The notes beneath the pieces are model-generated. The model was not told the DNA's origin, made no database searches, and was given only the letters and a program-made list of their open reading frames with translations. From the NCBI RefSeq assembly GCF_044324785.1, contig NZ_CP172127.1: a DNA stretch of 64,000 nt. One strand, 5' to 3'. This document shows positions 59,548 to 64,000 of the stretch, piece by piece (within the stretch, counting starts at the first letter, position 1; the number at the start of each line of letters is the position of its first letter). The position numbers and the translations under genes were made by a program. Source of the DNA: Escherichia coli (lineage in GTDB: Bacteria > Pseudomonadota > Gammaproteobacteria > Enterobacterales > Enterobacteriaceae).

Positions 59548-62013
<2,466 letters not shown>

Positions 62014-62029
62014 TTTCACTAATAAATAG

Positions 62030-62057
62030 AACGGGGCCAAAGGGTCCCGTTTTTTTC
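62030..62057 (+). terminator. glgP intrinsic terminator
   Basis: AACGGGGCC-AAAG-GGTCCCGTT hairpin (9-bp stem, one G-U pair) followed by TTTTTTT. Confidence 0.75.
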
Positions 62058-62140
62058 GCCATCATTTCGGAAAAGTGTCCAGAAGGGGCAAGGGGACTCG
62101 GGGAGTATAATTTTGCCATTCAGAAAGAATGGAAAGAATA

Positions 62141-63646
62141 ATGCAAAACAGAAAATGGATTTTGACCTCGCTGGTAATGACTTTTTTCGGCATCCCCATT
62201 CTGGCGCAGTTTTTGGCGGCGGTTATTGCCATGCTGGGGGCCGGGCTTGCCGCTATTCTTGAGTTTTGCAATTTACTCTTTACGCCAACAATTTATCTTC
62301 TACTCAACGTCTTTATGCTGACGCTGGGCGCATTACTGCTATTTTTCTCTGGGCGAGTGTGGGCGGGCGATAACGCACCAGAAAACAGAGAAATAGCCGC
62401 CTGGCGACAATGTCTTTTTTTAGTTCCCGCTTTATTAACCCTGGTTGGCTGGATAATCACGCTACATCTGGCAGATTATCAATTTCGCCAGATGGTTTCA
62501 GGTTGGTTGGCAGATCTTATGCTTCCCTGGCTGGGTGTTTTGTTAGTCTCATTAGTCGGTGGTGAGTACTGGTGGATAGTCATTATTCCCGTTGGAACGC
62601 ATATCATTTTTTCGCTGGGATACGGCTGGCCGACAAGGCATCCTTTAACCGGCACGTCCGGGCTACGTTGCCGTAACTTACTCCTGTTTCTACTTCTCTT
62701 ACTTGGTATTGTCGCTGGGTATCAGGCCCATTTATATAAGCAGCATAACCCTGGTGTTGGTGTACGCGAAAATATTGATATCTGGGCCTGGCGACCCGAT
62801 AAACTCAATAATCGACTGACGCCGCTGCGTGGCAAACCGCAAATTCAGTTTACGCAAAACTGGCCGCGAATCGATGGTGCCACGGCGGCGTACCCAATTT
62901 ATGCTTCTGCCTTTTATGCGTTAAGCATAATACCAGAGGATTTTCACGTTTGGGATTATCTGGATAACTCTCGTACGCCAGAAGCATATAACAAAATCGT
63001 TAAGGGCGATGCTGATATTATTTTCGTGGCGCAACCTTCCGGTGGGCAGAAAAAACGTGCAAAGGAATCTGGTGTCACTTTGCTGTACACCCCCTTTGCT
63101 CGTGAAGCATTTGTTTTTATCGTCAATGCTGATAATCCAGTCAATTCCCTGACTGAACAACAAGTGCGAGACATTTTTAGTGGCGCAATTACCAACTGGC
63201 GTACTGTGGGCGGTAACGATCAGGAGATCCAGACCTGGCAACGCCCGGAAGACTCTGGCAGTCAGACGGTGATGCAATTACAGGTCATGAAAAATGTCCG
63301 TATGATCTCGCCGCAGGAAACCGAAGTGGCAAGTGTGATGGAGGGAATGATTAAAGTCGTTGCCGAATACCGTAATACAAACAACGCAATAGGTTATACC
63401 TTCCGCTATTACGCAACACAAATGAATGCCGATAAGAATATCAAATTGTTAGCGATTAACGGTATTGCACCGACTGCGGAAAACATTCGCAATGGCAAAT
63501 ATCCCTATATCGTCGATGCCTTTATGGTAACGCGGGAAAATATGACGTCAGAAACACAAAAACTGGTTGAATGGTTTTTAACGCCGCAGGGGCAGAGTTT
63601 GGTAGAAGACGTGGGTTATGTGCCGATGTATAAAACGTTGCATTAA
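62141..63646 (+). CDS. yzgL: Membrane protein with a C-terminal PstS-like periplasmic phosphate-binding domain (intact counterpart of the K-12 yzgL pseudogene)
   Basis: About 200 aa of hydrophobic helices followed by a substrate-binding-protein-like domain. Start set at MQNRKW (62141), which has better Shine-Dalgarno spacing than the ATG at 62129. Confidence 0.6.
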   Translation: MQNRKWILTSLVMTFFGIPILAQFLAAVIAMLGAGLAAILEFCNLLFTPTIYLLLNVFMLTLGALLLFFSGRVWAGDNAPENREIAAWRQCLFLVPALLTLVGWIITLHLADYQFRQMVSGWLADLMLPWLGVLLVSLVGGEYWWIVIIPVGTHIIFSLGYGWPTRHPLTGTSGLRCRNLLLFLLLLLGIVAGYQAHLYKQHNPGVGVRENIDIWAWRPDKLNNRLTPLRGKPQIQFTQNWPRIDGATAAYPIYASAFYALSIIPEDFHVWDYLDNSRTPEAYNKIVKGDADIIFVAQPSGGQKKRAKESGVTLLYTPFAREAFVFIVNADNPVNSLTEQQVRDIFSGAITNWRTVGGNDQEIQTWQRPEDSGSQTVMQLQVMKNVRMISPQETEVASVMEGMIKVVAEYRNTNNAIGYTFRYYATQMNADKNIKLLAINGIAPTAENIRNGKYPYIVDAFMVTRENMTSETQKLVEWFLTPQGQSLVEDVGYVPMYKTLH

Positions 63647-63659
63647 GCAGGATTACAAT

Positions 63660-63746
63660 ATGGATATCATTAATATTTTCCTGAACGCGGCGAATGCCCT
63701 TTTTATCTATCAGCCGTTTATGCACGATCAGCGGGCGAGGGGGTAA
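63660..63746 (+). CDS. Possible 28-aa small ORF or leader peptide (MDIINIFLNAANALFIYQPFMHDQRARG)
   Basis: ATG with AGGA 7 nt upstream; its stop lies 2 nt before the next ATG. Short and unsupported by homology. Confidence 0.25.
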   Translation: MDIINIFLNAANALFIYQPFMHDQRARG

Positions 63747-63748
63747 TT

Positions 63749-64000
63749 ATGCAACCCAGCCCCGCCATGCAGGCATTAATTGAGCAGGTTTATCATATTT
63801 TTCGTCGTTATCCGGTGCCGCAGCAATTTGTTGTTTGTTGTGAATATTGCCTGAGTCAACAGGAACAAAAAGCATTACGGAATACATCGTTGCGAGCGAT
63901 TCCTTATTCCTTAATCAATGCCTGGAATAGTAGTCCAGGACCTGATCCGCAAAACAGCGATGAGGTTCGTTATTTTCTGCCGCGTTTACTGGAATTTGTT
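63749..64000 (+). CDS. Hypothetical protein, N-terminal 84 aa; gene runs off the window end
   Basis: Open frame from ATG 63749 to the window end (MQPSPAMQALIEQVYHIFRRYPVPQQFVVCCEYC); GAGGGGG Shine-Dalgarno upstream. Not recognised. Confidence 0.4.
   Translation, partial: MQPSPAMQALIEQVYHIFRRYPVPQQFVVCCEYCLSQQEQKALRNTSLRAIPYSLINAWNSSPGPDPQNSDEVRYFLPRLLEFV

Follow-up and report, generated by a model that had tools for sequence, protein, structure and literature searches.

Between glgP and glpD, a 64,000-nucleotide stretch of Escherichia coli DNA (the window) carries a gene whose product joins predicted membrane helices to a domain of the phosphate-binding PstS type. At this position K-12 has only the yzgL pseudogene. 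The locus raises the question of what a solute-binding domain does when it is fixed to the membrane and no ABC permease or ATPase lies beside it. All features described here are on the + strand, and residue numbers for helices, linker and ligands follow the 505-aa numbering.

An intact gene at the yzgL locus

A preliminary description of the locus had proposed a full-length gene where K-12 keeps a remnant, and this proved correct. The reading frame is open for 505 codons from an upstream ATG at 62129 to a single stop at 63646, compared with a 222-bp 5' remnant, the first ~74 codons, in K-12 yzgL. Alignment to K-12-type genomes matched query positions 1–223, so that the surviving portion corresponds to 62141–62363; homology ends near 62363 and REP-like DNA follows. 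The start had been considered ambiguous between 62129 and 62141, and it is: ATG 62129 yields 505 aa, RefSeq takes ATA 62138 (502 aa, MMQNRKW), and ATG 62141 yields 501 aa. We favor the last (CDS 62141–63646) because the orthologues in other genera begin with M-K/Q-N-x-K-W.

An intrinsic terminator of glgP, a stem-loop followed by a T-run (62028–62056; RNA fold −17.1 kcal/mol, z = −3.5), is kept in five E. coli strains and sets the gene apart from the glg operon. A perfect −10 hexamer, TATAAT, lies 30 bp 5' of ATG 62141 (62106–62111) and may mark a promoter of the gene's own, with no good −35 element for it in the sequence. K-12 yzgL retains both this candidate promoter and the 5' end, and a modest Cpx response (−2.0) is on record for the yzgL promoter in K-12 (PMC2731931).

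The gene is intact and under purifying selection. No frameshifts emerged from the alignment, and all seven E. coli alleles compared are intact, with dN/dS of 0.10–0.30. Their dS values of 0.11–0.48 exceed those of the adjoining glgP (0.04–0.14); the near-identical pair formed by the window and N3 has a dS of 0.017. These values bear on the reading that the gene is a decaying or functionless relic akin to K-12 yzgL. Loss, truncation and IS insertion are indeed frequent in E. coli, but the copy in the window and six further alleles stay intact at low dN/dS despite dS of up to 0.48, and same-site orthologues are conserved in Klebsiella and Salmonella. We regard a relic as the least probable of all the explanations considered.

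Membrane module and topology

The fusion of a membrane module to a PstS-like domain, likewise part of the preliminary description, is evident in both profile searches and modeling. Six predicted helices (aa 2–46, 53–81, 87–114, 125–144, 149–169 and 177–206) precede a Pfam PBP_like_2 domain (E = 6.4e-30), and the AF2 model (pLDDT 85) has six long helices over aa 2–206 followed by the PBP domain. The N-terminal polytopic module spans 62141–62746, with hydrophobic segments at aa 10–203. No family in Pfam or NCBIfam matches it, and a profile search restricted to the TM part recovered just incomplete pieces of this E. coli gene and nothing of a different architecture. Within the protein, conservation is lowest in this module, which has P23 and Q199 as its sole invariant residues and evolves fastest (dN/dS 0.17–0.49 vs 0.05–0.21 for the PstS-fold domain).

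Counted simply, the six helices would leave the domain on the N-terminal side of the membrane. However, family-wide K+R counts assign the N-tail, loop 75–93 and loop 168–183 all to the cytoplasm. By this positive-inside pattern, the six hydrophobic helices probably make an odd number of membrane crossings, and the PstS-fold domain is predicted to face the periplasm at the inner membrane.

With its ligand-binding domain joined to several membrane helices, the protein could be a periplasmic sensor whose own helices relay the signal across the membrane, a reading with which the modest Cpx response of the K-12 promoter is compatible. However, the protein has no cytoplasmic output domain, its cytoplasmic loops are short (17–20 residues), and the helices that would carry the signal are the part that evolves fastest and can be replaced by a lipid anchor in sister paralogues. 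Furthermore, no kinase, cyclase, chemoreceptor or other signaling neighbor is conserved among the 136 nearest neighbors of 72 loci from other phyla. We consider a sensor improbable. The preliminary description had offered "a sensor or anchored binding protein"; the first half of this alternative thus finds little in its favor, while the second fits well, because a transporter partner is found neither at the window nor in about 90 related loci.

A PstS-type domain with an almost complete anion pocket

A conserved juxtamembrane linker (aa 207–246) and the PstS-fold domain, predicted to be periplasmic, occupy 62747–63643, with the PBP_like_2 match at aa 247–485 (62867–63583). Profile searches of Pfam and NCBIfam revealed no other domain in the protein. 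In Foldseek, the C-terminal domain matched 9l8j, 4gd5, 4q8r and 1twy, all solved PstS-type phosphate binders, with a target TM-score of about 0.8 and E of about 1e-15; an earlier reservation that the domain might fall outside the phosphate-binding fold can be set aside on these matches. The window protein shares the type II periplasmic-binding fold with the PstS/TIGR02136 type (4gd5 and 4q8r from C. perfringens, 1twy from V. cholerae and 1ixh from E. coli). The best structural match, Synechocystis Sll0540 (9l8j), is PstS-like and does not belong to a pst operon according to its entry title. In contrast to the window protein, it is a 240-aa protein of the soluble type without a membrane module, and the two are 20% identical.

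Pocket residues were assigned by aligning the sequence with E. coli PstS (verified as that of 1ixh) using hhalign. Seven of the eight PstS ligand positions (T10, F11, S38, D56, R135, S139, G140 and T141) are chemically conserved in this alignment, and these seven are invariant across the phyla in which the family occurs, the Rhs-linked lipoproteins described below included. T252-A253 (62882–62887) correspond to the anion-site ligands T10-F11, and T283 (62975–62977) to S38. The segment Q371-R372-P-E374-D-S376-G377-S378 (63239–63262), which is covered by the family signature QRPxxSGSQ, supplies the equivalents of R135, D137, S139, G140 and T141. The one lost position is D56, with which PstS reads the proton of the phosphate: in the window protein it is A301 (A301-Q302, 63029–63034), and Ala is nearly invariant there throughout the family. 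Family-specific invariants absent from PstS are R325-E326 on the hinge strand and a GYTFRYY motif, and R426 is a further one. Taken together, the alignment suggests that the family retains a nearly complete PstS anion pocket.

A stand-alone family without a transporter partner

RefSeq annotates the gene under the name "phosphate transporter subunit", which is assigned automatically, in some 62% of the complete genomes of E. coli; with thousands of genomes already carrying an annotation for it, the gene is not new. The preliminary description mentioned neither this annotation nor the very large stand-alone family and the Rhs/T6SS-linked lipoprotein paralogues to which the gene is related. The family consists of stand-alone proteins of the same "multi-TM + PBP_like_2" architecture and crosses phyla, comprising at least 1,500 clusters at 50% identity (E<1e-30); the signature motif QRPxxSGSQ was recovered at 576 or more loci. 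It extends to Gram-positives, which have neither periplasm nor T6SS. Literature searches on yzgL, membrane-linked PBP_like_2, PstS in immunity and Sll0540 returned nothing that characterizes the family.

The absence of an adjacent ABC permease or ATPase, noted in the preliminary description, extends well beyond this locus. None was found in about 90 loci examined across phyla, including the window, the E. coli variants and six other enterobacterial contexts, with Klebsiella, Salmonella, Budviciaceae and Rahnella loci among those covered. In the 72 loci from other phyla, with 136 nearest neighbors, the 25 commonest of 156 Pfam families contain neither component, and no Pfam family occurs more than six times among these neighbors.

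These observations bear directly on the RefSeq name, under which the protein would be the substrate-binding component of an ABC transporter for phosphate. This assignment has in its favor the homology to binding proteins of the PstS family and the naming itself. However, the NCBIfam model TIGR02136 scores 121.2 bits against a cut-off of 206.6 and is matched in its C-terminal two-thirds alone. A polytopic N-terminal anchor takes the place of the signal peptide or lipobox of PstS, D56 is lost, pstCAB linkage is lacking, and the Pho box CTGTCATAWAWCTGTCAY, allowing up to three mismatches, has no match across the entire window. The name is poorly supported on these grounds and, given also that the closest relatives sit in an Rhs immunity-gene position, probably wrong, in which case it misleads in thousands of genome annotations. 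Genomic context largely refutes a role as ABC subunit, which we consider very unlikely. Binding domains covalently tethered to membrane helices also occur in OpuA/GlnPQ-type SBD–permease fusions and in SBD sensor kinases, but the window protein has no BPD_transp-type permease signature, ATPase, kinase or GGDEF domain. We therefore think it likely that the protein is a stand-alone tethered binder, one that would act in binding itself and not as a delivery subunit.

Lipoprotein paralogues in Rhs toxin modules

The closest relatives of the domain are paralogues, 55–68% identical to it, in which a lipoprotein signal takes the place of the multi-TM anchor. This short, lipoprotein clade nests within the enterobacterial long forms, and its members, carrying lipoboxes, are thus periplasmic. 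In the T6SS cluster of E. albertii, the gene order is tssBC-hcp-vgrG-PAAR-Rhs, followed after 84–105 bp by a PBP_like_2 lipoprotein (332 aa, lipobox LMSGC) and then the next Rhs. In orphan toxin/immunity arrays of Salmonella, a toxin C-terminal domain lies directly 5' of a PBP_like_2 lipoprotein. The toxin C-terminal domains of Salmonella and E. albertii are 68% identical over 154 aa, the DPxGL junction included, and Ntox34/HEAT and Peptidase_M91 pairs are also present in the surrounding Salmonella array. The lipoproteins of these E. albertii and Salmonella modules share 58–65% identity with the domain of the window protein.

The toxin family is tiny, with four relatives among 5.8 billion proteins, and none of the 5,426 complete E. 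coli genomes contains its DNA. Its invariant motifs are THTF, YSWGN, KKENEH and RNCK. The pattern of an invariant His on a strand and a Cys at a helix start hints at a papain-like fold, which we treat as a lead only; a Foldseek search of the toxin fold against the PDB gave nothing significant. A Peptidase_C92 gene beside one Salmonella long form was examined as a possible toxin relative and rejected (hhalign probability 0.1%).

The position of these lipoproteins, directly after the C-terminal toxin of an Rhs protein, is that of the Rhs/T6SS immunity proteins (RhsI). The window copy differs from such proteins in its multi-TM anchor and in having no adjacent toxin, its upstream neighbors being glgP and the terminator. 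Unlike typical small immunity proteins, the domain is about 300 aa in length and has an intact small-ligand pocket. No PBP-fold immunity protein was found in the literature searched.

A hypervariable islet between glgP and glpD

Downstream of the gene, a 28-codon ORF (63660–63746) is shown by three-way DNA alignment to be what a deletion within a YbbD-family gene has left behind; other E. coli keep that gene intact (236 aa) at this place. The islet continues with the 5' part of a 258-aa ORFan, which begins at 63749 and runs off the window at 64000; complete loci have a 201-aa membrane ORFan between this gene and glpD. These neighbors and a DUF4279-like one gave no informative family match in searches in which Pfam lacked PF26610 (YbbD_head). 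PADLOC models of known anti-phage defense systems had no matches for the window protein, the islet neighbors or the short paralogues. Plasmid carriage is essentially nil, the sole E. coli "plasmid" match being a 4.8-Mb record.

The islet exists in at least six variants, among them long+short and long+short+short. A near-full-length copy is absent from about 38% of E. coli genomes, K-12 among them, and decay has occurred through the K-12 deletion, IS1 insertions, frameshifts and a swap for a fimbrial operon. Long and short forms occur together between glgP and glpD in O157:H7, E. coli B, TA054, Escherichia sp. E4694 and Pseudocitrobacter. Such variable content, tandem paralogues and lack of a toxin are as in orphan immunity or polyimmunity islets, where hypervariability and stacking with paralogues are likewise seen.

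Possible roles of the tethered binder

We tentatively favor a protective, immunity-like role in enterobacteria, because the lipoprotein sister paralogues hold the immunity-gene slot of Rhs/T6SS toxin modules and because lipoprotein and long forms are exchanged or stacked in the hypervariable islet. The accessory behavior of the islet, with its variation and frequent decay, and the deeply diverged alleles with low dN/dS support this role. In such a scheme, the cleft would capture a phosphate-bearing group, or a protein inserting into the anion site, at the membrane surface, and the window copy would be an "orphan" allele that, with no toxin beside it, protects against periplasm-acting toxins from competitors. 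Several points temper this proposal. The window copy is not adjacent to any toxin, and the toxin's DNA is missing from the complete E. coli genomes. The family-wide role cannot be immunity to the Rhs toxin, since the family is huge and includes Gram-positives while the toxin family is tiny. Moreover, E. albertii and Salmonella have the long form in addition to the dedicated lipoprotein, so the long form is evidently no substitute for a cognate immunity gene. Finally, strict conservation of the small-ligand pocket is to be expected of an ordinary ligand receptor, and this counts against immunity.

Nearly as likely, and ranking just behind, is an orphan phosphate or oxyanion receptor, whose tethered domain would bind Pi, a related anion or a phospho-ester on the outer side of the cytoplasmic membrane for the cell's own physiology. 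It might supply an unlinked importer (such as PstCAB), hold ligand locally or sense it via the membrane module, with the Rhs-linked lipoproteins as a side-branch that arose later. Besides the PstS fold and the invariant ligand positions, the size of the family, most of which has no toxin linkage, agrees with such a receptor. TM-anchored binding proteins are ordinary in Gram-positives, and unlinked PstS paralogues with solved structures exist, Sll0540 being one. Conversely, the missing Pho box, the Ala at the D56 position and the sub-cut-off PstS score in NCBIfam do not favor a phosphate receptor, and the invariant R325-E326 and R426 point to a different ligand. The protein also has neither a conserved partner nor an output domain, and more than a third of E. 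coli genomes do without a near-full-length copy. The presence of paralogues with an intact pocket in the immunity slot would also be left unexplained.

The immunity-like role can be taken further, to the possible but doubtful proposal that PstS-fold proteins form a class of periplasmic immunity protein, so far unrecognized, that is directed at a new family of Rhs/T6SS toxins, with the E. coli yzgL locus as an orphan-immunity islet and the window gene as a protective allele anchored in the membrane. The phosphate pocket would then neutralize by binding the toxin or by shielding its phosphate-bearing envelope substrate. If the immunity link is true, it would add a new toxin/immunity pair and an unusual case of a solute-binding fold serving interbacterial defense with its pocket intact. 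If it fails, the proteins still represent an uncharacterized class of transporter-less, membrane-tethered anion receptors in Gram-negative and Gram-positive bacteria. For either outcome, K-12 serves as a natural null, both the long and the lipoprotein form are present in E. coli B/BL21 and O157:H7, and a candidate cognate toxin is available from E. albertii and Salmonella.

Architecture, topology and start of the window protein

The window gene (62129-63646, + strand), preceded by glgP and followed by glpD past the window end, consists of one open reading frame (505 codons), free of the frameshifts or stops of a pseudogene. Pfam places a PBP_like_2 domain at residues 247-485 (E=6.4e-30; numbering from the 505-residue version), and a PDB sequence search returned only PstS-type phosphate binders, led by C. 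perfringens 4q8r and 4gd5 (~1e-18). An AF2 model built from 24 family members (mean pLDDT 85, pTM 0.71) contains six long helices (residues 2-46, 53-81, 87-114, 125-144, 149-169 and 177-206) and, after them, a domain of mixed alpha/beta structure. Foldseek matched this C-terminal domain to the solved phosphate-binding proteins 9l8j, 4gd5, 4q8r, 1twy, 4exl and E. coli PstS, with target TM-scores of up to 0.8. Together, these results confirm the membrane-plus-PstS-like architecture proposed in the preliminary description, including the phosphate-binding fold of its C-terminal domain.

Six helices alone would place the domain on the same side as the N-terminus. Family-averaged K+R counts are high in the N-terminal tail (2.1) and in loops 75-93 (3.4) and 168-183 (4.3), and low in 34-52 (0.3), 115-125 (0.75) and 145-148 (0.1). 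By the positive-inside rule, this pattern suggests an internal N-terminus, an external domain and an odd number of crossings; one of the helices 126-144 and 149-167 is probably non-spanning. An external domain also fits the three-segment Gram-positive members and the lipoprotein paralogues.

A strong intrinsic terminator (62028-62056; -17.1 kcal/mol, z=-3.5) lies between glgP and the window gene, and a perfect TATAAT (62106-62111) lies upstream of the latter; no Pho box was found anywhere in the window. All E. coli strains share ATGGAAAGAATAATG at the gene start. RefSeq/PGAP begins the CDS at an ATA codon at 62138 (site 62138-62143, product starting MMQNRKW). The Klebsiella and Salmonella orthologues start MKNxKW, aligned with the second ATG, which argues for 62141 as the favoured start.

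Distribution and selection in E. coli

The window gene and its K-12 counterpart are already known, the former catalogued in RefSeq as a 502-aa 'PstS family phosphate ABC transporter substrate-binding protein'. As had been described, K-12 has only a remnant, annotated as the pseudogene yzgL, which comprises the promoter with the first ~74 codons; homology ends near window position 62363, where REP-like DNA follows. A CpxR-regulon table gives yzgL (b3427) the value -2.0 (Bury-Moné et al. 2009, PMC2731931), and the gene is also a site for neutral insertions into the chromosome (PMC6010332); the promoter left in K-12 is therefore active and may be responsive to envelope stress. Of 5,426 complete E. 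coli genomes, 3,347 carry at least 80% of the ORF, about 1,370 match it only in part, mostly through the K-12-type remnant, and 705 have no match.

All seven E. coli alleles compared are intact, with an overall dN/dS of 0.10-0.30 (0.05-0.21 in the binding domain, 0.17-0.49 in the membrane part). Excluding the near-identical window-N3 pair (dS 0.017), dS is 0.11-0.48 vs 0.04-0.14 in adjacent glgP (59566-62013), or 3-6 times the glgP value in most pairs. The locus is otherwise core, and its alleles are thus deep lineages or imports, under purifying selection and not decaying; the view that the window copy is a relic is the least credible of those considered.

A predicted phosphate-type pocket

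Profile-profile alignment of the family with E. coli PstS (identical in sequence to 1ixh) pairs T10 with T252, F11 with A253 (a main-chain ligand), S38 with T283, D56 with A301, R135 with R372, D137 with E374, S139 with S376, G140 with G377 and T141 with S378. On this mapping, seven of the eight PstS ligand positions appear to be kept; the exception is D56, through which PstS detects the proton on phosphate. The pocket positions are invariant or nearly so in the family, and are also kept in the Rhs-linked lipoproteins. Given the D56 loss and further family-specific invariant residues (R325-E326 in the hinge strand, and GYTFRYY), the ligand may not be plain orthophosphate. That the protein serves as an orphan anion receptor is possible, and nearly as likely as the immunity-like reading discussed below.

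A stand-alone family

The RefSeq name implies a transporter subunit, which by every test available the window protein is not. It scores 121 bits against the NCBIfam PstS-family model, vs a cut-off of 206.6. No ABC permease or ATPase gene occurs in the window, in the E. coli islet variants between glgP and glpD, or at the loci of K. oxytoca, Salmonella (two different sites), Budviciaceae and Rahnella. Scanning one genome per species for the motifs QRPx[DGN]SGSQ and [AS][IL]GY[TS]FR[YW]Y gave at least 576 loci with both, in Enterobacterales, many Bacillota, Planctomycetes, Actinomycetota, Treponema, Prevotella and Pasteurella; almost all encode 3-6 N-terminal hydrophobic segments ahead of the domain. 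The 136 nearest neighbours of 72 family loci carry 156 different Pfam families, each occurring at most six times, with no transporter family among the 25 commonest. The protein is therefore very unlikely to be a true ABC transporter subunit and is probably a stand-alone tethered binder; a role as a transmembrane sensor also seems improbable. An exhaustive representative search yielded 1,506 clusters at E<1e-30, and members are occasionally fused to WG, ankyrin or RCC1 repeats or carry tandem domains. In the searchable literature there appears to be no account of this stand-alone multi-TM family, of the weakness of the RefSeq name or of the link to Rhs immunity positions.

Lipoprotein paralogues and an Rhs toxin

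Short paralogues of ~320-340 aa have a lipoprotein signal in place of the membrane module, with lipoboxes including LMSGC, TAGCG, ISGC and LAGC. In an E. albertii T6SS cluster, the order is tssB/C, hcp, vgrG, PAAR-Rhs, an 84-105 bp gap, a PBP_like_2 lipoprotein and the next Rhs (DUF6531). The C-terminal domain of the PAAR-Rhs protein follows a DPLGL junction; a frameshift splits the gene in this assembly. A Salmonella homologue of the toxin tip (68% identical over 154 aa including the junction) likewise lies directly upstream of a PBP_like_2 lipoprotein, within an orphan array of Ntox34/HEAT and Peptidase_M91/154-aa pairs and a second PBP_like_2 gene. In Rhs systems gene order points to the immunity gene, and by this rule the lipoprotein is a candidate immunity protein, implying a toxin that acts in the periplasm. 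The Rhs-linked lipoproteins are 58-65% identical to the window domain and form a clade nested within enterobacterial long forms.

The toxin domain (stretch L016 9486-9893 in E. albertii; L017 10001-10396 in Salmonella) has invariant motifs THTF, YSWGN, KKENEH and RNCK, no Pfam match and, among 5.8 billion proteins, no more than four relatives; the family is apparently undescribed. A PBP_like_2 lipoprotein follows it in every locus recovered with flanks. The toxin shows weak similarity to permuted papain-like H-box/NC proteins.

Tentatively, the window copy could itself be a protective, immunity-like binder, which ranks first among the readings by a narrow margin; some weight goes to none of those named. 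Against this, no toxin is adjacent and the toxin DNA occurs in none of the complete E. coli genomes, its family is tiny vs the vast TM-PBP family, which includes Gram-positives, and E. albertii and Salmonella have a long form besides the dedicated lipoprotein. The ancestral role is therefore more general, most simply the binding of a phosphate-type ligand on the outer face of the membrane, and one enterobacterial branch has apparently been recruited to toxin defence. With K-12 as a natural null and both forms present in BL21 and O157, the immunity-like reading can be tested directly.

Salmonella also has a second long form, a divergent paralogue of 498 aa with 37% identity, encoded between ruvC and ruvA (L021 8001-11094). 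It adjoins a 230-aa ORFan and a gene of the permuted papain-like Peptidase_C92 type. The Peptidase_C92 protein, considered as a relative of the Rhs toxin, has no detectable relation to it.

The glgP-glpD islet

The glgP-glpD interval is a hotspot whose gene content comes in at least six versions (stretches L004, L005, L006, L014, L104, L105 and L108-L111 from other genomes). These include the long form with ORFans; presence or absence of a YbbD-family gene; long plus short lipoprotein forms (O157:H7, E. coli B, CLSC36); the long form with two short forms and a secreted repeat protein (TA054); the short form without the long (Escherichia sp. E4694, Pseudocitrobacter); a fimbrial operon replacing the long form; IS1-disrupted copies; and the K-12 deletion. 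A 28-codon ORF in the window (63660-63746; MDIINIFLNAANALFIYQPFMHDQRARG) fuses N- and C-terminal remnants of the YbbD-family gene; other E. coli, OkiPb01716 and C10 among them, have that gene intact (236 aa) at the same site. The internal deletion (~625 bp) is common to the window, N3 and ST131 EC958. Next come two ORFans (63749-64000, continuing in L001 7851-9235), the first Cys-rich (258 aa, CCEYC) and the second a polytopic membrane protein (201 aa), neither with a family in Pfam, NCBIfam or PADLOC. The membrane ORFan is kept in all islet variants at 77-100% nucleotide identity, even where the middle genes differ.
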